A stretch of DNA of 64,000 nt from Gammaproteobacteria bacterium (GTDB lineage: Bacteria > Pseudomonadota > Gammaproteobacteria > CBDBNL01 > JAAOII01). Shown here piece after piece: positions 19,332 to 31,074 of this stretch (within the stretch, counting starts at the first letter, position 1; every line of letters begins with the position of its first letter). The notes under the pieces are model-generated. The model did not search any database and was not told the origin of the DNA. It worked only from the letters and a program-made list of their open reading frames with translations. A program made the translations under genes and the position numbers. The stretch is from NCBI GenBank assembly GCA_965207705.1, contig OZ242292.1, forward strand, positions 1,033,309-1,097,308. Reading direction: 5' to 3'.

Positions 19332-21517
19332 TTATTGAAAGATGCTGCGGTACTTAATGGAACGCGGACGCCCTGCAGAAAAATAAACCTCGCGTGGAAT
19401 GGTAATTATTTCTGAGTCGTTCATAAAAAGTAGTCCACTTTCTCCCAAAACATAATATTCTCCAGTGGTTTTATCGCCGCGTTTGGATGAATACCTTTCC
19501 CTGTGGTCTATAAAACGCGGTAGTGACTGCCCTATGATAAATGCGTCCCGCCCGCGCACATAAAAGCGCAAGGCAAAAATACTATCGGCTTGAAGCGACT
19601 CATCCCAATTACGCAACAATCCTAAAATTCCTGGCAACTCTCCATACCTTACCTGCTGTAAATCACGATAAGTGATGCTGCTAATATCACGGTCATATAA
19701 CAAGAAGGTGCCATAAACTGGAATATCATTGGCAAGATAAAAAGAAAGGTAGGGTCTAACTTGAACTGCCATTATGCTATCCATAGCCAAGAAGATACAG
19801 TCGGCATCAACTCTCTCGTAAGATGCTTGCATTTCGTGAAAAAATTATCAAGCAGCTCTTGAGTACTCACTTCTTCTTCTGTATCACCAGCGATTAGTTT
19901 TAGTTCTTCAAGTATCTCGGGGGTCAATGTACCAGCTGCATCTCTTTGTATTGTAGTGGTACGATTATAATTTTCTTTAGATAGTATAAAAACTTCTTGC
20001 TCACGCAATAATAATTGTATATCTTCATGTGGTAGTAGAATGGGGATATCTTCTTCTTGAGAAACCGTATTTAGTAGTTCATTTAATGTCTTTTCTTCCA
20101 ACCCGCGTTTACGTAATTGGAATAGATAGTTACGATATACTTCTTTACTTGCCTCAACTTCCTCGTTGGTGACCTCTACTATTTCAGAGACGGCTTCTAT
20201 AATCTTTTCTTCTGGGACAATTATTCTATTTTTTACAATCTTACCTCCTAAAGAACGCCATTCCTGCTCCACAGCAGCACTGGCTCTATCTCCCAGCTCA
20301 TTATCCTGTCTAATAATTATCATAGCGCGGCACTCATTCTTCCAAGCAGAACGAGCCGCGAATACTGCGTTTCTTTCAACATCAAGGTTATAACTAAAAA
20401 ATTTATCACGCTTGCCTCCTTTGGGTAGCGCATTAAAAGCCAATATAGGTATGGCAGGTCTTGACACTTCTCTATAAAGCCGCTTTACCTTTTCTTTACG
20501 TAAAGGACCTATTATTAAACTGTTTTTTTCTCTAACAGCTGTGTCATAAAGAGAGCGCACTGAGCTTTCTTGATTAGTATCATATCGTTTGACCTCTACT
20601 GTGGTGTAATGTTGTTTTGCTATGCCTATATAACCAGCTACTATTGCCTCTGAAAAAGATGCAAGCGGACCACTAAAGGGGAGCAAGAATGCAACGTGAA
20701 TGGAGTCACGGGCTGACGTAGAGGAAACTTGGATTAATTCGTCCTGCCTTGAATCAAGCACGGGGAAGTATCTTTCCCCCGGGTGCCGTGGATACGACTC
20801 GCGCCATAGCGAACGAGTGTTGGTTCGTGAATAACTAGGATCTATGTAACTTAGAAGGGCAAAATCATACCAGCCGCGCATGTAGGTATCAGGCGCCAAT
20901 CTTGCTTCATGCAGCAAAGTATCTGCGGATAGAGTATAAAGCATTCTAAGAATTTGTTTTTGGTTGGGAATACTATCCTTAGTGCTGAGTCGTTCATCCA
21001 TAAGAATTAGCATTCGTAAGGCGGTTTTGATATCCCCTCCTGCCTCTAAGGTTGCCGCATAAGATAAGAACCAATCCGTTTGAAAGGCAATGGAGCTGCC
21101 TCTTAGAACTTCATCTCCTACTGGAACTATTTCACGAAAAGCTAGGTTAGGTTTATCAACCAAAAGATAGTAGCGAACCTTTGCCAGTTGAAACCTGAGA
21201 AGCTGAGATACGTTTAGGTCTGCGGTTTTGACACCATTTAATTGGCGGCGCGCTCGGTTGCTATTGCCCTCTTTCAACGCTTCTTCTGCTTCTGCTAGTT
21301 TTACTTCCGCTTCTTCACTTAAGATACGAGCTTCCGCGCGAGTTACAATCGGCTTTTGTGCGACAGAAGGGGTTCTTTTTGAAGGGGCGGTTTGACAAGC
21401 TGCCAATACCAATAGCCCGCACAAGACGAGTAATTTTATTTCTATTCTTAGTTTATTCTTAACTAACACGGGGGCGCAAAACAAAGCGAATATCTTTGCC
21501 AAAAAATCTTTCATCAA
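19332..21517 (-). pseudogene. lpoA: Penicillin-binding protein activator LpoA, split by a 1-nt frameshift in a T6 (coding-strand) homopolymer into ORFs 19772..21517 (581 aa) and 19332..19832 (166 aa)
   Basis: The N-terminal ORF has lipobox VLAAC, TPR-like repeats and the start of the periplasmic-binding-protein-like domain (HVAFLLPFSG). The 166-aa ORF in another frame continues that domain (VDADCIFLAMDS...LQQVRYGELPGILG). Adding one T to the run at 19839..19844 fuses them: ...ELLDNFFHEMQASYERVDAD... A sequencing error at the homopolymer is equally possible. Confidence 0.65.
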
Positions 21518-22664
21518 TTATCTCAAATTTATAAGCATCTTTCATACTATCAACAGTAAGCTCCATTAAAGGAGCGGTCTTAGTTCCCATTATACAAGGG
21601 GAAATATAAAGAATGAACTCATCAACTAAATCTGCGGTTAAAAAAGCACCTGCCAGTCGGGCGCCACTTTCTACCATAAGCTCGTTAATGCCTCGTTGCA
21701 CCAATCTCTCCACCACGCTGGCTAATTGGATGCCGCTCTCACCCTTCCCATCCTTCTCGCCCTTTCCGTCATTCTCGCCTCTCTCGTTATGAGGCAAGGT
21801 AATAACTTCGGTTTCCGTGGGTGCAGTGGGCAGCGCCGCTTGATTCTTGTGATGTTCTTTATTATATTTGTTATCTTGATTGTCCGCTCCAATCCAAAGC
21901 TTAGTTCCTGGGGTAGTGAAAAAGGCGGCATCGGGAGATAGAGTGAAGTTGGTATCCAACACTATACGCAACGGCTGAGTTAGCGGCTGCAGCGAGGAAG
22001 TAGTTTCAAGACGAGCATTAAGACGAGAGTTGTCAGCATTCAAGGTTGCAGCGCCAGTTATCACTGCGCAGCTTTGGGCGCGCCAATAATGGACATCTTT
22101 TCTTGCCTCTTCACCAGTTATCCAACACGGAGAATCTGCTGCAGAAGTATCGGGGTTGGTATTGGAATTGGCATTGCGAAAGGCAGTTGCGCCGTCTAAA
22201 CTTTGCGCCATCTTTAACCTAATCCATGGTCTACCTTTTTTATGACGTTGGATAAAACCCTTATTAAGTTCTGCCGCTTCTTCTGCCAACATTCCAGTGT
22301 TAACTGCGATACCTGCTTGCTTTAATCTGGCAATCCCTTTGCCGTCAACTAATGGATTTGGATCACTTATGGCTATATAAACTTTTGCTACTTTGGCTTT
22401 GATGAGCGCTTCCGTACAGGGGGCTGTCTTGCCTTGATGGCAACAGGGCTCCAAGGTAATATATACATCCGCCCCTTCAGCTTTATCCCCTGCCTGATTA
22501 AGGGCAATTATCTCGGCGTGGGGTTCACCTGCCTTACTATGCCAACCACTTCCAACTTGTTGTCCATCGCGGATTATGATACAACCAACTCGCGGATTGG
22601 GGCTAGTAGAATAAAGCCCTTTCCTTGCCAAACGCAATGCCTCCTCCATTGGGGTCAAACCCAT
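21459..22664 (-). CDS. ribD: Bifunctional riboflavin biosynthesis protein RibD (diaminohydroxyphosphoribosylaminopyrimidine deaminase / 5-amino-6-(5-phosphoribosylamino)uracil reductase)
   Basis: 401 aa. CMP/dCMP-deaminase zinc motif (HAEIIAL...PCCHQGKTAPC) and a RibD reductase C-domain. Contains a Gly/Lys/Asp-rich low-complexity insert (NERGENDGKGEKDGKGESG). Confidence 0.9.
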   Translation of the reverse strand: MGLTPMEEALRLARKGLYSTSPNPRVGCIIIRDGQQVGSGWHSKAGEPHAEIIALNQAGDKAEGADVYITLEPCCHQGKTAPCTEALIKAKVAKVYIAISDPNPLVDGKGIARLKQAGIAVNTGMLAEEAAELNKGFIQRHKKGRPWIRLKMAQSLDGATAFRNANSNTNPDTSAADSPCWITGEEARKDVHYWRAQSCAVITGAATLNADNSRLNARLETTSSLQPLTQPLRIVLDTNFTLSPDAAFFTTPGTKLWIGADNQDNKYNKEHHKNQAALPTAPTETEVITLPHNERGENDGKGEKDGKGESGIQLASVVERLVQRGINELMVESGARLAGAFLTADLVDEFILYISPCIMGTKTAPLMELTVDSMKDAYKFEIIDERFFGKDIRFVLRPRVS

Positions 22665-25092: not shown

Positions 25093-25422
25093 TTACTCTT
25101 GAATCCTTTCTATGACACACTCTAATAAACATTCGTTATCCGATGCCAGCTTTTCTACTTCTGATGCTTTGGTTTCAGCAATCTCTCGCACAAAGACGCC
25201 GCATGCTGCGCGCCCTTCTTTGCTCATCTGCGACATCATCTTGACAACCGAATTACGATCTAATCCAAAAACTCTTATCATAACCTGTTCAACGAAATCT
25301 GGCGGCGCCTTACTGTTGTGTATTACCACTACCCGATACTTAGACGGGGGTAAGGGATTGGCGCCAGAACGAGATCTACTTTCTGGTAGCGAACTAGCTG
25401 CGGGCTTATCATCAAATTTCAT
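25093..25422 (-). CDS. clpS: ATP-dependent Clp protease adaptor ClpS
   Basis: 109 aa, ClpS fold blocks (YRVVVIHNSKAPPDFVEQVMIRVF). Immediately upstream of clpA. Confidence 0.9.
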   Translation of the reverse strand: MKFDDKPAASSLPESRSRSGANPLPPSKYRVVVIHNSKAPPDFVEQVMIRVFGLDRNSVVKMMSQMSKEGRAACGVFVREIAETKASEVEKLASDNECLLECVIERIQE

Positions 25423-25555
25423 ACCTGTTATTATATAACTTTTTTATACTTTTGTTAAGTTTCATTAAAACTCTGTGTTTTTTTAATATGGCTGCTACCA
25501 GAAAGATTAATTGATGAAAAAAGAGATTTATGACATAAGTAACCTGGAAGAAATA

Positions 25556-26176
25556 TTAATTATTGCATTTGCTCCGTTTTGCTTTCTTTTTCCGATCAGA
25601 TTCGACTTGTTTCATCGCTTGCGCAGGATCATGTGGGCGTGAACCACTCGGCGGCTCTCTACTATATTTTTCATAATATGCTTGGAACACAAAATATGGA
25701 TATACATAATCCTTTACATAATCATATAAATTATCTGCATCAATATCAGTATGAAATGCCAAGCAGCACCAGCATATACCATTAAGTTTATTTAAATGCA
25801 CATCTCGCAACTCTTTACCTAATCTTTTTCTTGTCTTTTCAATCCTTCCTGATTTTTCGAAAACCATAGGGAAGCCCCATTGATCGCGGGCATCTTCATT
25901 ATTGCCAAGACGTATCTTAATTTTATATCCGGGTGGTTTATCGTCAACTAAATGCCTTAATTTGTTAGCATCTTCTCCTGGTTTTAATGGCCCAATACGC
26001 CATGGGCTTTTTGTACTTTCTCTAAAATACTTAACACGAAAATATAAATTCCCTTGTATAGTTTCATGTTTTGGATCGTATTCTAAATCAGGGAAAAATT
26101 TTTTTATCCGTTCGAAATGTTCTTTTGAATAAGCTATGCATAATCCTTTATTCAAATGGGCCGCTCTTAAATTCAA
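25556..26176 (-). CDS. Uncharacterised 206-aa protein, third gene of the patatin-nucleotidyltransferase operon
   Basis: ORF separated from the nucleotidyltransferase gene by only 12 nt. Cys/His cluster (GICWCCLAFH), basic C-terminal tail (KKKAKRSKCNN). AT-rich. No recognisable family. Confidence 0.5.
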   Translation of the reverse strand: MNLRAAHLNKGLCIAYSKEHFERIKKFFPDLEYDPKHETIQGNLYFRVKYFRESTKSPWRIGPLKPGEDANKLRHLVDDKPPGYKIKIRLGNNEDARDQWGFPMVFEKSGRIEKTRKRLGKELRDVHLNKLNGICWCCLAFHTDIDADNLYDYVKDYVYPYFVFQAYYEKYSREPPSGSRPHDPAQAMKQVESDRKKKAKRSKCNN

Positions 26177-26188
26177 AAGCTAGTTCTG

Positions 26189-27211
26189 TTATAAAGATAG
26201 CGCATAGGGCTTGACTGCATCAACAATTGGAATTGAGGCGGTTGCTGCTGGCGTTATTTTGCCTCCTGAATTATTATTAGAGGTGTCTCCATTTAATTTT
26301 CCGAACTTATCGCCGAAAATCTTTCTCCATTCTTTTACACATTCATCATGGTTCTCTGCTTTATAAGCATCATTAATGAAATTATTATAGTCATTAAATA
26401 TTTTTCTGAATTTAGAATAGCCGTCTTGATTCCATCTGTCTGCAAAATTTTCACTCTCAAGTATTGGATTTTGAATTCTGGGAAGAGCTTCATTCTGCTG
26501 TAAGTAATCGTTTATTCTATTGACAAGAGTTTTTAAGCAGGTAGGGAGATTAGCAAAATCCGCATCATCATACTCATCATCATCTTGCACCTGCGCCCCT
26601 ATGAGTGTAGTTAATATTATTGATTTAATATCAAATTTTTTACTATGGTCTCTAGAATACTTTAATAATCTTGTGACTTTACGAATAAGGTTCCCTCCAA
26701 TTTTTTTATTTTTTTCTACCAACCATTTTTTATAGCCATCGCCATCAGTTAGCTCATAGCATTTATCATTTGAATTACAAATATAATATAAATAATCATT
26801 CTCCCCATTAGCAACTCTTATACAAGGAACCAGATCGAGATGAAAATCTCCCGCATAATCTAGTGTGACGCATCTATTATTCTTTTCGACTATATCCTTA
26901 TAGTTTGCATCTGCACGAAATACTTCATATATATCATTCACATAATCTACAAATGTATTTGCATCAAACTCATCACCCTTTATCATTATTAATACATCAG
27001 CGTCAAATCCAGTATCAGCGTCAACTGGTTTAATTATAGTTTTTAATGCATAGGATCCTTGAGTTTCAAAAGTTCTATAGGGTACGTATTTATCTTTCAA
27101 ATAACTAGTGATGATATCAATTTTTGATTCCAATAGCGCTACGCGTGATTTATTGAGATTGACTTCGTCTTTAAGAAAGTCATCAAAATAACCTATAATT
27201 TCGTTAATCAT
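26189..27211 (-). CDS. Pol-beta-fold nucleotidyltransferase with cGAS/DncV-like (CD-NTase/SMODS-type) active-site pattern
   Basis: 340 aa. GS (res 52-53), then 10 residues, then D-A-D (KPVDADTGFDADV), and a downstream hDh strand (FHLDLVP), i.e. GS-x(n)-[DE]h[DE]...h[DE]h. Helical C-terminal half. Directly downstream (65 nt) of a patatin phospholipase gene. Confidence 0.55.
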   Translation of the reverse strand: MINEIIGYFDDFLKDEVNLNKSRVALLESKIDIITSYLKDKYVPYRTFETQGSYALKTIIKPVDADTGFDADVLIMIKGDEFDANTFVDYVNDIYEVFRADANYKDIVEKNNRCVTLDYAGDFHLDLVPCIRVANGENDYLYYICNSNDKCYELTDGDGYKKWLVEKNKKIGGNLIRKVTRLLKYSRDHSKKFDIKSIILTTLIGAQVQDDDEYDDADFANLPTCLKTLVNRINDYLQQNEALPRIQNPILESENFADRWNQDGYSKFRKIFNDYNNFINDAYKAENHDECVKEWRKIFGDKFGKLNGDTSNNNSGGKITPAATASIPIVDAVKPYALSL

Positions 27212-27276
27212 GGCTAGTTAATAGGGCTAGTATCTTAAATTTCAAGTACTATTATTCGTTTTAATTGAGAATCTAA

Positions 27277-28251
27277 TTATTTTGAGAAAAATTTCTTAAA
27301 ATCTTCTTTTTTACCCTTAAATTTTTCTTCCGCCCTTCTCTTAAGGGCGGGGATTACCTTAATGTCATCAAGAGATATTTTTTCAACAGTATAATCGACT
27401 CTCATATATCTATCTTTAAGCATCAATTCCAGTGAATTATGAGGGAAGTCTTTTTGGATATGCATAACAAAATCAATGAGTTTTTTATTCTTCCATCCCG
27501 TTAAAAAACCCCATTTCTTTGAAAAATCTTTCTGCTTATAACCTTCTCTCGACTTGCCTGTACCTAATGAAAGTAATTTTATATCAGCGTGCTGAGATTC
27601 AAAGTTACTTAATGCTTCGATATAGCCCACCAAAGCAGGATTATTAGCCCACAGCCCTCCATCACATAACAAGGCACCCTTAACCATGGTGGGGTCAAAG
27701 TAAGTTGGCGCACAACAAGAAGCTAAAACTGCCTGCCATAGAGGGATGCATCCATCGCGTGCATACCCTTTTTTTCCTCTTATTTTTTCCTGATAATTAG
27801 ATTTAAATACCTGAACCCCCCAATTAGAAATATTTACAGCATTTATAATCAAGGGTTTATCTATATCTTTTAATAATGTGCCTCCCATCTCCTTCTCTAA
27901 AAATTTTCTAAGAGAACTAGTTTTATATATAGAGGCACATAGCCCCTCCCCCAAAAGTTGTTCTAAAAATCTACAAAGTATATTATGGTTAGTTTTTTTA
28001 AAAATACCAGGGGAACTATTTTCAAATTGATCTATTAATCTATCTAAGGGGTATCCTATCGCAACAGCCGCTGCTACAATAGCTCCCGTGCTTGTTCCAA
28101 CAATTAAATCAAAATATTCCCTAATATCAATGCTCAGTTCCTTCTCTATTTTGTGAAGAATCATAGCCGGGTATATTCCACGAACCCCGCCGCCATCAAT
28201 TGTTAGAATTTTAATTTCACCCCTATAGCCCTTTAGTTTTTCCTTCATCAT
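27277..28251 (-). CDS. Patatin-like phospholipase (CapV-like effector)
   Basis: 324 aa. Oxyanion-hole motif DGGGVRG (res 19-25), GxSxG nucleophile motif GTSTG, catalytic-dyad Asp in LLCDGGLWANNP. Confidence 0.85.
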   Translation of the reverse strand: MMKEKLKGYRGEIKILTIDGGGVRGIYPAMILHKIEKELSIDIREYFDLIVGTSTGAIVAAAVAIGYPLDRLIDQFENSSPGIFKKTNHNILCRFLEQLLGEGLCASIYKTSSLRKFLEKEMGGTLLKDIDKPLIINAVNISNWGVQVFKSNYQEKIRGKKGYARDGCIPLWQAVLASCCAPTYFDPTMVKGALLCDGGLWANNPALVGYIEALSNFESQHADIKLLSLGTGKSREGYKQKDFSKKWGFLTGWKNKKLIDFVMHIQKDFPHNSLELMLKDRYMRVDYTVEKISLDDIKVIPALKRRAEEKFKGKKEDFKKFFSK

Positions 28252-28354
28252 TCAGATTAAGGTTATTTGTAGCAGCTCAATCTTTAAGCCCCATCTCCAT
28301 AAAATTCTTGAGTCATAGCGGCTAATCTCAACTTTCATTTTCTGTGCTGCGTAA

Positions 28355-29056
28355 TTACAGTTGTTCTGAATATAGCTTACTTATACTCGCTTTATCAAAT
28401 ATTCCTGGCAAAAATACTATAAAGCCATTATCAAGACGTTTTAGTTTGCCTTTCCATTCTTCTTGCCAACGGGCAAATGGTACCGATGGTTGTTTTTTTA
28501 TAAGTGTAAAAGGATCACCTTTAGGAATGTCATAAGTTATATTAATAATAATTTTCTTTCTCTTGGTAATCGGGCGAGGTACTCGCTCTTCGCGACTTAA
28601 AGTTTCTTTCTTTATTTGAATAGGTATTATCTGCTTCCCGTTACTTACTTGCATGTCGATGCCTTGCCAATCGAGTTCTGCATTCATTTCTACTGTATCA
28701 AATATTTCTTCGGCAATGTAACCAGCATGAATTTGGGTAAGCAAGCTTGCCCAAGTACGATATATTCTGGCAGGAAGTCCTCTATGAAAAGTTTCATAGC
28801 TAAATTGAGATTTCCTTCTAAATTCTTCCAGTTCTGGCTTCAAATCTTTAGAATACTTTGCATAAAACTTCTCATAATTAAGATAGTTAGAATAATTATC
28901 CCAGTATGTTTGATAAATATGCTTAAGGGCTTGTATATTGCGAGGTAAATCAAGTTCTACTATTTTAATTCGGGAGTATTTCTCTCTATAAGCTGAGGTG
29001 TCTATTCCGGAGAGGAATTTCTCAAATTTCTCTACTGATCGCATTGTTGCAACCAA
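28355..29056 (-). CDS. Hypothetical 233-aa protein, candidate type II restriction endonuclease partner of the upstream methyltransferase
   Basis: Start overlaps the methyltransferase stop by 25 nt (translational coupling). AT-rich. Possible degenerate PD-(D/E)xK-like segment (QGIDMQVSNGKQIIPIQIKKE). No family recognisable by eye. Confidence 0.4.
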   Translation of the reverse strand: MVATMRSVEKFEKFLSGIDTSAYREKYSRIKIVELDLPRNIQALKHIYQTYWDNYSNYLNYEKFYAKYSKDLKPELEEFRRKSQFSYETFHRGLPARIYRTWASLLTQIHAGYIAEEIFDTVEMNAELDWQGIDMQVSNGKQIIPIQIKKETLSREERVPRPITKRKKIIINITYDIPKGDPFTLIKKQPSVPFARWQEEWKGKLKRLDNGFIVFLPGIFDKASISKLYSEQL

Positions 29057-30075
29057 CCATTTGCAAGGTTTATATAATCTTTATTTAGTTCTATCCCCAA
29101 ATAATTTACTCCCAATTGCTTTGCCGCCACACATTCAGAACCAGAACCAGCAAACGGCACTAATGCCGTCCCAACCTCTTCGCCTGCCACAGCAGATCTG
29201 ATGAGTTGCTGGGTTAAATATAATGGTTTTTGTGTGGGGTGTTTAATAACAGAATGCTCGCGATGATGTTTTAGCTCGGAAGGAGGGAATATCTGATTAT
29301 CGCAGGTTTGACATAGAAACCATCTCTCGCTCGCACCAGCGCCGCCTGCTAAAGCCGGATAATGCAATACGTCACGCGGCAAGGCGCCGCGTGGATGCAC
29401 ATTGTAAACTGTATCTTTGTTTTGATTGTTATAACGGCAGGGCACGCTCAAACGCTTCTTGCCGCCAAGTTTTTTATAACTCTCGGTATAAGGAATACGG
29501 ATCTCATCAATGTTGATAATTGGGCGTTTGCCTTTCCAAAAACAAATTATGGTTTCATGGCTTCTCTGCCAAAACTTGGATGAAGGAACTGCCTTGTTCG
29601 TGTAGTGCCAAGCCAGCCACCTTTGTTTATCCAAGGGAAAGCGCACTGCCAAGTGCGCAATTATTTCGCTCAAGCCATATACATAAACGGGCTTGCCCTG
29701 CTTAACTAAGCGTAAGCATTCGTGCAACCATTGCTCACACCACGAGATATATTCATCGATATGAAGATTGTCGTCATCAATTTTGTTGCCAAAATCCTTG
29801 CCAATGTTGTAGGGCGGATCTGCAATGATAACGTCAAATAAATCATTTTGTTTTATATTTTGCAATACCTTGAGTGCATCTCCACAGATTATGGAGTTTA
29901 ATGGAGGTAATTCAGGCGATTGGTTATCTTTTGGTTTAATTGGATTTAAAAATATTTCTTTTTGTTGCAGAGGATTATAATCCTTGGCGGTAACTCCCTC
30001 CCGCGCAGTCTCCCGTGCAGTATCCGAGCGGAGATTATTCTGTTGGAGTTTCAATGTTCGCGTTGCGTTTGCCAA
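29032..30075 (-). CDS. DNA methyltransferase, beta-class amino-methyltransferase (motif IV DPPY before motif I FAGSG); N6-adenine or N4-cytosine specific
   Basis: 347 aa. IIADPPYNIG (motif IV, res ~85) precedes the C-terminal AdoMet-binding VPFAGSGSECVAAKQLGVNYLGIELN (motif I). This is the circular permutation typical of beta-group N6A/N4C MTases. Confidence 0.85.
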   Translation of the reverse strand: MANATRTLKLQQNNLRSDTARETAREGVTAKDYNPLQQKEIFLNPIKPKDNQSPELPPLNSIICGDALKVLQNIKQNDLFDVIIADPPYNIGKDFGNKIDDDNLHIDEYISWCEQWLHECLRLVKQGKPVYVYGLSEIIAHLAVRFPLDKQRWLAWHYTNKAVPSSKFWQRSHETIICFWKGKRPIINIDEIRIPYTESYKKLGGKKRLSVPCRYNNQNKDTVYNVHPRGALPRDVLHYPALAGGAGASERWFLCQTCDNQIFPPSELKHHREHSVIKHPTQKPLYLTQQLIRSAVAGEEVGTALVPFAGSGSECVAAKQLGVNYLGIELNKDYINLANGWLQQCDQ

Positions 30076-30132: not shown

Positions 30133-31074
30133 CTATGTGGTAAATAGTGGCTCCCCCATTTTGATGGGGGTGTTAGGGTTGGGGACAAGGGATAGGTCGC
30201 GGTTTTCCAATAGCATGACTACGGTGGAGCCCATTTCAAAGTATCCAAGTTCATCTCCTTTGTTAAATTTTTGTGGGGTAGTGCGCTTCTCGGCGGCAGA
30301 ACGGGCGTGATAAACTGATCCCCAAGCCGTCCCGATAGACGAAACAAATAAGGCGGCAACCATCACATAAGCCATCATTCCATATTCTGTTGCAAATACA
30401 CAAGACAAACGCTGATTATGAGCGTATAAAGAGGGGAATCGTTTCACGCTTTTTTCGTTCACCGAGTAAAGCTCGCCTGGAATGAAGTTGGCAAGAGTAA
30501 GCGTAGCGGCGCAGGGGACATGGACGCGATGATAGTTATGCGGCGCCAAATAGATAACCGTGCTTTGCCCGTTGCTGAGAGATTTAACGCGAGAGTCATC
30601 TTCTTCTAAACCAAGGAGTTCGCTAACCGAATAGTCCGCTCCCTTGATGTTGCGGATAATTGGTGACTGGGGTGGCGACTTAGATGGGGAGGGGGGCGGA
30701 GATGATGCGGCATGCGAAATTGTAGGCGTCGTTGCACCTGGGCTAGCGGAATCAGATATGCCTGCAGAACTCAAAGCGACGGTTGTCTTAGCTGATATTC
30801 TGCCATGCTGAATTATGCCGCCATTGGTTAAGGTTCCGTCTGCTGGAGATACAAACGCCGAGGCAGATAAAGGGCGGGCATTCGCTTTGAGGCGGCGCGT
30901 GAAAAAATCGTTGAAGCTAATATAATTGCGTAGCTGCGAATGTAACGCCTCTTGCATATTTGGCTTGTATATAAGTATAAACAGATAGATTAACAGATTC
31001 TTTAACCAACGAATACGACAGTCAGTTAAGGCGCGGGCGGCGGCGGATAAATTCTTTTTCAAGTTCATTCGCAC
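30133..31074 (-). CDS. psd: Phosphatidylserine decarboxylase proenzyme
   Basis: 313 aa. Psd blocks (YISFNDFFTRRL, YHRVHVPC, C-terminal self-cleavage region FEMGSTVVMLL). Carries a ~43-aa Ser/Pro-rich insert (res ~100-142). Confidence 0.85.
   Translation of the reverse strand: MRMNLKKNLSAAARALTDCRIRWLKNLLIYLFILIYKPNMQEALHSQLRNYISFNDFFTRRLKANARPLSASAFVSPADGTLTNGGIIQHGRISAKTTVALSSAGISDSASPGATTPTISHAASSPPPSPSKSPPQSPIIRNIKGADYSVSELLGLEEDDSRVKSLSNGQSTVIYLAPHNYHRVHVPCAATLTLANFIPGELYSVNEKSVKRFPSLYAHNQRLSCVFATEYGMMAYVMVAALFVSSIGTAWGSVYHARSAAEKRTTPQKFNKGDELGYFEMGSTVVMLLENRDLSLVPNPNTPIKMGEPLFTT

Follow-up and report, generated by a model that had tools for sequence, protein, structure and literature searches.

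A divergent, knuckle-less E2 protein in a three-gene type II-short CBASS operon of a gammaproteobacterium

The E2-only form of CBASS, the antiphage signalling system based on cyclic oligonucleotides, also termed type II short or E2-CBASS, is a described class with members reported in 616 genomes. In the system of Serratia marcescens (Yan et al., bioRxiv 10.1101/2022.05.25.493364; Xiao et al. 2026, PMC12948482), the E2 (SmE2; structures PDB 8HSB, 8YJY and 9KKB) works without an E1. Cys101 and His87 of SmE2 cleave off the residue that follows Gly406 of the cyclase, after which a thioester is formed. The cyclase is then passed either to Lys159 or Lys151 in the C-terminal loop of SmE2 itself, which yields an inhibited adduct, or to other cyclase molecules ('poly-cGASylation'), which is activating, and His152 of SmE2 tunes the interconversion of adduct and chains. 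Deletion of the E2 and the mutations C101A and H87A each abolish defence, and deletion of the SmE2 C-terminal loop raises chain formation and the synthesis of cyclic GMP-AMP (cGAMP). Here, the protein encoded at positions 25556-26176 on the minus strand of a 64,000-nucleotide stretch of gammaproteobacterial contig OZ242292.1 (the window) is compared with these systems. A probability of about 0.8 is given to the reading that the product of this open reading frame (ORF) is the stand-alone E2 regulator in a type II-short operon of three genes, and a mechanism like that of SmE2 is proposed for it. The protein is a divergent E2 without the zinc knuckle of most of its relatives, within an already known family, and its operon is a recognisable, uncharacterised branch of a known defence system.

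Scans of the ORF against Pfam and NCBIfam returned sub-threshold noise alone (DUF2442 at 0.057 and rSAM_RumMC at 0.012), and among 5.8 billion proteins searched by word index the sole match was the protein itself, which explains why the first-pass annotation of this DNA, made from the letters alone, saw no family and held that no known CBASS accessory family fits. However, five CBASS E2 or E1-E2 profiles of the PADLOC defence library match the protein (best PDLC00872, E 1.8e-9, residues 84-184), and the match to the E1-E2 profile PDLC00833 (222 positions) covers only the E2-core region, residues 102-171. When 1.84 billion cluster representatives were scanned exhaustively with HMMER, 69 relatives emerged at E<=1e-3; for 25 of these the E value was <=1e-10, and identities reached 43%. 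Relatives score up to 1.5e-27 against the PADLOC E2 profiles. Several relatives of ~530 residues carry a CD-NTase (nucleotidyltransferase of the cGAS/DncV-like type) at the N terminus and an E2 domain at the C terminus, and these gene fusions argue that both proteins work together. The view of the protein as an accessory or regulatory component of its operon, which the first-pass annotation had also offered, is borne out. One relative (P0075) is assigned the Pfam family PF26395.1 in precomputed annotation, a family absent from the local Pfam scan at E<=0.1, which may be a newer model for the E2 family.

The predicted structure of the protein has a UBC-like fold with an N-terminal helix, a four-stranded meander, a Cys-bearing loop and a crossover helix. 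In structure it is matched best by the E2 from the complex of S. marcescens CdnG with its E2, at 15% identity in the structural alignment. A Foldseek run against the PDB was negative, and no sequence-level match between SmE2 and the window protein is detectable. SmE2 was reached neither by phmmer searches of the PDB with the window protein and a short homologue (P0052) nor by two PDB profile searches (alignments A1 and A3), which gave SEC-C motif matches (SecA, YchJ) and a weak UBC match (2h2y, E ~0.1). Profile-to-sequence similarity to eukaryotic UBC E2s (for example UBE2D2, UFC1) and to UEV/RWD domains is insignificant (hhalign probability 6.6%). In further contrast to the eukaryotic E2s, no ubiquitin, E1 or E3 is involved in the window system, and a further conserved His and a PPxG motif set the family apart, as does the zinc knuckle that most members carry.

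In an alignment of 58 homologues, no column other than His127 and Cys138 is invariant; at least 90% of the homologues keep His182, Gly42, Val105, Glu107, Leu139 and Cys204, and His182 is invariant in alignments A1 and A2. The active-site motif H127-LNKLNGICW-C137-C138 (25763-25798, minus strand) resembles the 'HPN...G.IC' of UBC enzymes, and the family motif DLHLxxDGSCCLG (DVHLNKLNGICWCCLA in the window protein) has the same register as the UBC 'HPN...G.ICL'. Alignment of the family profile with UBE2D2 by hhalign placed His127 on His75 and Cys138 on Cys85; this alignment is weak and not significant alone (probability 6.6%), and it was used for the motif register only. Cys138 is predicted to be the catalytic cysteine and His127 the general base; their spacing fits the UBC/E2 superfamily, in which the invariant Cys follows an HPN-like His by ~8-14 residues. 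His182 (25631-25633, minus strand) lies in a PP(C/S)GxxxH motif and is the predicted counterpart of SmE2 His152. The window protein retains a His...Cys...His series at a spacing similar to that in SmE2 and has a Lys-rich flexible tail. Judged by order and spacing, not by superposition, His127, Cys138, His182 and the tail lysines would be equivalent to SmE2 His87, Cys101, His152 and K151/K159. The strings that the first-pass annotation had quoted as a Cys/His cluster and a basic tail were all located in the translation (GICWCCLAFH at residues 133-142, HTDIDAD at 142-148 and RKKKAKRSKCNN at 195-206); the Cys and His residues are indeed present, but they belong to the E2 active-site motif His127...Cys138 and not to a metal cluster.

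The E2 gene is the last of three genes on the minus strand. The first, at 27277-28251, encodes a patatin-like phospholipase (Pfam Patatin 2.6e-29; PADLOC phospholipase effector 2.3e-85; NCBIfam CBASS_lipase 229 bits against a cutoff of 200), which is predicted to be a CapV-like, nucleotide-activated effector. The second, at 26189-27211, encodes a CD-NTase (SMODS) of 340 residues (Pfam SMODS 1.1e-25; PADLOC cyclase 1.2e-108), the predicted signal-producing cyclase and E2 substrate. Its AlphaFold2 model has a predicted local distance difference test score (pLDDT) of 89.2, and its top Foldseek matches are CD-NTase structures, led by the S. marcescens cyclase SmCdnG (8yjy_A, E 5e-15). In the PDB, CdnB, CdnC, CdnD and CdnG structures match the window cyclase about equally well, so that these matches favour no single clade. 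A short acidic surface stretch at residues ~205-220 (26550-26610; QVQDDDEYDDADFANLP), which is modelled with high confidence, sits roughly at the position of the protease-sensing 'activation loop' carried by CD-NTases of clades A, D and G (Hobbs and Kranzusch 2026, PMC12991175); being short and confidently modelled, it is probably not such a loop. The ORF list and the family scans show neither an E1 (adenylation) domain nor a JAB/Cap3 peptidase in the operon, which thereby differs from systems with the E1-E2 fusion Cap2 and the JAB protein Cap3 (PDB 7TO3; Ledvina et al., bioRxiv 10.1101/2022.03.31.486616). The first-pass annotation was right that the 206-residue protein is too small for Cap2 and has no JAB motifs, and no E1 or JAB domain was detected in it by Pfam, PADLOC or NCBIfam.

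The same gene arrangement recurs elsewhere. A scan of one genome per species with a peptide pattern, which the window protein itself fails (FVFQ for FVWQ), gave 20 loci, and in all 20 a CD-NTase lies directly upstream of the E2 homologue or is fused to it, one locus being cut by a contig end. A patatin like that of the window precedes the cyclase, in the window order, at 15 of the 20 loci, in agreement with the earlier proposal that the three genes form one unit. The genes are separate at 13 loci and fused at 6; the remaining locus (L010) is the one cut by the contig end. Fusions of 495-560 residues make up 24 of the best 120 relatives of the window CD-NTase, and a SEC-C match in Pfam is present in 21 of the 24. 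With a CD-NTase adjacent or fused at every locus and fusions among the cyclase relatives, the E2 homologues are clearly not confined to unrelated contexts; such confinement was among the refuting results named in the first-pass annotation. In the genome scan the branch came mainly from metagenome-assembled genomes (MAGs) of Arenicellales, Latescibacterota, Bdellovibrionales, Rhodothermales and other Gammaproteobacteria. The source names of the cyclase relatives are only 'hypothetical protein', 'nucleotidyltransferase' and 'SEC-C domain-containing protein'.

The C-terminal tail of the window CD-NTase (residues 311-340; 26192-26281, minus strand) is disordered in the model, with a pLDDT below 50 and no predicted secondary structure. 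Near its end lies the motif K334-P-Y-A337 (26201-26212, minus strand), followed by L-S-L, which is the predicted site of recognition, cleavage and conjugation by the E2. Of 60 scorable cyclase relatives, 53 have the motif [KR]P[YW]A, with 1-7 residues after it (3 being the commonest number). At the predicted conjugation position, 53 of the 60 have Ala, 4 have Ser and 3 have Gly, and the linker of the CD-NTase-E2 fusions contains the same KPYA-type motif. The tail of the window cyclase ends with an aromatic residue and a small one, behind which comes a short extension. SmCdnG has 407 residues and ends in a helix and three-stranded sheet with the terminus ...YG-E, whereas the disordered tail here ends KPYA-LSL. 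The published hallmarks of E2-associated cyclases are a Gly at the conjugated C terminus, a folded 'E2-binding motif' made up of a C-terminal helix with a beta-sheet of three strands, and a long chain (~400 residues, mostly clade G). The window cyclase has Ala337 at that position, disorder over residues 311-340 and a length of 340 residues, with relatives of 316-342 residues (median 328). The effectors differ as well, a patatin here and a 2TM-SAVED protein in S. marcescens.

By analogy with SmE2, the window E2 most likely attaches covalently to the tail of the neighbouring cyclase and thereby controls it. Since the operon has no E1, ATP-dependent activation would be absent, and the E2 itself would have to expose and activate the C terminus by proteolysis, as SmE2 does. 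In the proposed mechanism, the E2 would bind the disordered tail at the conserved ...AVKPYA motif, and Cys138, helped by His127, would remove L338-S-L340. A thioester would form on the newly exposed Ala337 carboxylate without E1 or ATP. The cyclase could then be passed to a lysine in the Lys-rich tail of the E2, giving a covalent, restrained cyclase-E2 adduct, or alternatively to another cyclase molecule, giving chains that would activate the synthesis of the nucleotide signal. The signal would activate the CapV-like patatin phospholipase, which would destroy the membrane and abort the infection. The cleavage site, the acceptor lysines, the assignment of restraint and activation and the identity of the nucleotide were all inferred by analogy.

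A SEC-C zinc knuckle, C.CGSGKKYK.CC (PF02810; C-x-C-x-S-G-K-K-Y-K-x-C-C), ends 50 of the 58 E2 relatives and is absent from SmE2. The motif is known from SecA and YchJ and terminates most E2s of the branch (relatives P0002-P0027 and P0070-P0076; loci L003-L022), and a literature search found no paper connecting it with a CBASS E2. The E2s of this SEC-C-bearing subfamily (PDLC00872) are true homologues of the window protein, 30-43% identical over ~170-190 residues, and include fusions (P0004, P0007, P0008, P0016 and P0025). Both share the core motifs and the operon order patatin/CD-NTase/E2, and their cyclases belong to one subfamily and have the KPYA tail. The core motifs of the subfamily are FPxLxY, DLHLxxDGSCCLG, VYPYFVWQAYYEKY or YPYFVWQAYYEKY, and PPCGEYxH, of which the window protein carries the variants GICWCCLA, YPYFVFQAYYEKY and PPSGSRPH (alignments A1, A2 and A3). 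The window protein departs from the family by a 2-residue 'CW' insertion ahead of the Cys-Cys pair, by PPSGS where the family has PPCGE (C177S), by Phe for the conserved Trp164 (W164F) and by an extra loop, LRHLVDDKPP, at residues ~73-82. With its TTG start, the insertion beside the catalytic Cys and the missing knuckle, it is an atypical member, and its divergence is above average. The E2 core is 39% identical to those of relatives, compared with 55% in other pairs with equally diverged cyclases (n=8).

The Lys-rich tail of the window protein, K189...RKKKAKRSKC204NN (25559-25612, minus strand), contains the candidate acceptor lysines 189, 196-198, 200 and 203. In alignment A1, Cys204 pairs with the first Cys of C.CGSGKKYK.CC, and the protein terminates as ...RSKC204NN* two residues past it. 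No remnant of the SEC-C motif, frameshifted or otherwise, was found in any frame downstream of the ORF. Because the protein stops after the first Cys of the knuckle with no remnant behind it, the basic tail is best described as the leftover lead-in to a lost knuckle.

It is possible, though on balance doubtful, that the branch is a mechanistically distinct, uncharacterised form of E2-CBASS, in which short cyclases with a disordered tail of [KR]P[YW]A plus ~3 residues are paired with an E2 that usually bears SEC-C, with frequent fusions. Recognition would then be of a linear motif instead of a ubiquitin-like folded module, conjugation would be through Ala and not Gly, and the knuckle would perhaps be regulatory or sensing. 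The window protein would be a natural knuckle-less variant and, by analogy with SmE2 lacking K151-R162, could be shifted to cyclase-cyclase conjugation and easier triggering.

The strongest alternative to a functional E2, though an unlikely one, is that the ORF is a decaying, non-functional E2 remnant, perhaps of a nonsense-split CD-NTase-E2 fusion, and that the operon now acts as a two-gene, type I-like CBASS of patatin and CD-NTase. It is favoured by the TTG start, with no in-frame ATG near the 5' end, and by the reading frame shared with the cyclase. As to where translation begins, an alternative TTG at codon 8 (26153-26155), with a Shine-Dalgarno-like AAGAG element 7 nt upstream, would give a protein of 199 residues; the homologues start at around residue 13 of the window protein, whose first 11 residues are disordered in the model. 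The CD-NTase stop is a TAA at 26189-26191, and the 12-nt gap reported in the first-pass annotation is the spacer 26177-26188, which holds an in-frame TAG. The cyclase and the E2 share one reading frame with TAA-CAG-AAC-TAG alone between them, and the junction is translated as ...KPYALSL*QN*LLNLRAAHLNKGLCIAYSKE.... The loss of the knuckle at a stop right behind its first Cys, the CW insertion next to the catalytic Cys, the W164F and C177S substitutions and an E2 core more diverged than the cyclase predicts point in the same direction. Truncated or frameshifted E2 domains also occur in two Arenicellales/Rhodothermales MAG loci. In L015 the fused E2 domain is cut at the conserved His (the fusion ends at ~6441), and in L016 the fusion changes frame after ...YFEKF, before the PPCG motif. 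If they are not products of faulty assembly, these cases show that the E2 C terminus has been lost or has decayed repeatedly in the family.

However, the ORF itself, which is real and lies on the strand that the first-pass annotation left unstated, stays open over 206 codons in AT-rich DNA; such a frame at ~35% GC, together with 69 homologues, is far beyond chance. The invariant and near-invariant catalytic positions (His127, Cys137, Cys138, Pro175, Pro176, Gly178 and His182) are all kept. Short members without SEC-C occur naturally (P0035, P0052, P0057 and P0060), and deletion of the SmE2 tail increases activity and does not abolish it. The cyclase retains KPYA and the 3-residue extension typical of unfused systems. 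Although the frame is shared, KPYA and the E2 core lie 22 codons apart in the window, compared with 9-12 codons in real fusions, which makes a simple nonsense split unlikely; a nonsense-split fusion was considered for the gene pair and not adopted because the linker is too long and the cyclase tail is of the unfused type. With the catalytic positions intact and natural knuckle-less members in existence, the window E2 appears more likely to be functional than dead.

A new CBASS sensor or regulator unrelated to ubiquitin-like conjugation, such as a Cys/His metal-binding phage sensor, was already disfavoured and is very improbable. It would be in keeping with the lack of a significant Pfam or NCBIfam match, the self-match alone in the word-indexed search and the negative Foldseek run. 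The first-pass annotation had offered such a new regulator or sensor, or else a non-canonical CBASS; neither survives, E2-only CBASS being an already described class with a worked-out mechanism. Still more remote, and likewise already disfavoured, is a small basic DNA-binding or nucleoid-type protein that neighbours the operon by chance, for which only the highly basic C-terminal 12 residues, with their RKKKAKRSK stretch, speak, and against which stand the alignment of that stretch with the SEC-C lead-in of the E2 homologues, the absence of any DNA-binding family match in Pfam and NCBIfam and the adjacency or fusion to a CD-NTase at 20 of 20 homologue loci.

Between the three genes, the coding strand shows nothing that resembles a terminator, and no good promoter-like site was found there; the only strong promoter-like site (11 of 12 matches) lies past the E2 stop, before clpS. 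The E2 is putatively coupled to the CD-NTase in translation, as the first-pass annotation proposed. An Rfam scan of the window gave no match. The CBASS operon (25556-28251) is adjoined upstream by a TaqI-like type II restriction enzyme (28355-29056) and its methylase (29032-30075), and clpS and clpA lie downstream. The GC content is 30-37% over 25400-29000, which covers the CBASS and the restriction enzyme, compared with 44-49% in the flanks, and the low-GC stretch sits between psd and clpS. The region 25400-30075 looks like an acquired defence island. A contig of a second strain (L001, ENA ERZ25069764) is 97.75% identical to the window overall. From clpS to the methylase (25093-30075), the two differ at 10 positions in 4983 nt, compared with 86 in 942 nt in psd and 40 in 2370 nt in clpA, which suggests that the island was recently transferred, recombined or swept. 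Four of the ten differences cluster at 26687-26694 inside the CD-NTase gene, and none falls in the E2 ORF. As the island is near-identical in the only other strain, L001 is uninformative on selection acting on the E2 ORF. Elsewhere in the window, which has a GC content of 41.7% in a genome of ~2.06 Mb, low-complexity insertions are present in RibD (21459-22664; GENDGKGEKDGKGESG) and Psd (30133-31074; SSPPPSPSKSPPQSP).

The comparison removes a false lead: instead of bearing a new sensor, the operon is recognisably a CBASS of the type II-short (E2-only) kind. General annotation, moreover, overlooks this E2 family, which has no Pfam or NCBIfam match and whose fusions are called 'SEC-C domain-containing protein' or 'hypothetical' by NCBI. 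Real potential for novelty lies only in how the cyclase tail of this branch is presented, compared with the Serratia system. A large, mostly metagenomic branch of E2-CBASS that lacks the published hallmarks of E2-associated cyclases is documented, and it offers experimental work a concrete set of systems to compare, on the question of how an E2 recognises its substrate and activates it without an E1.
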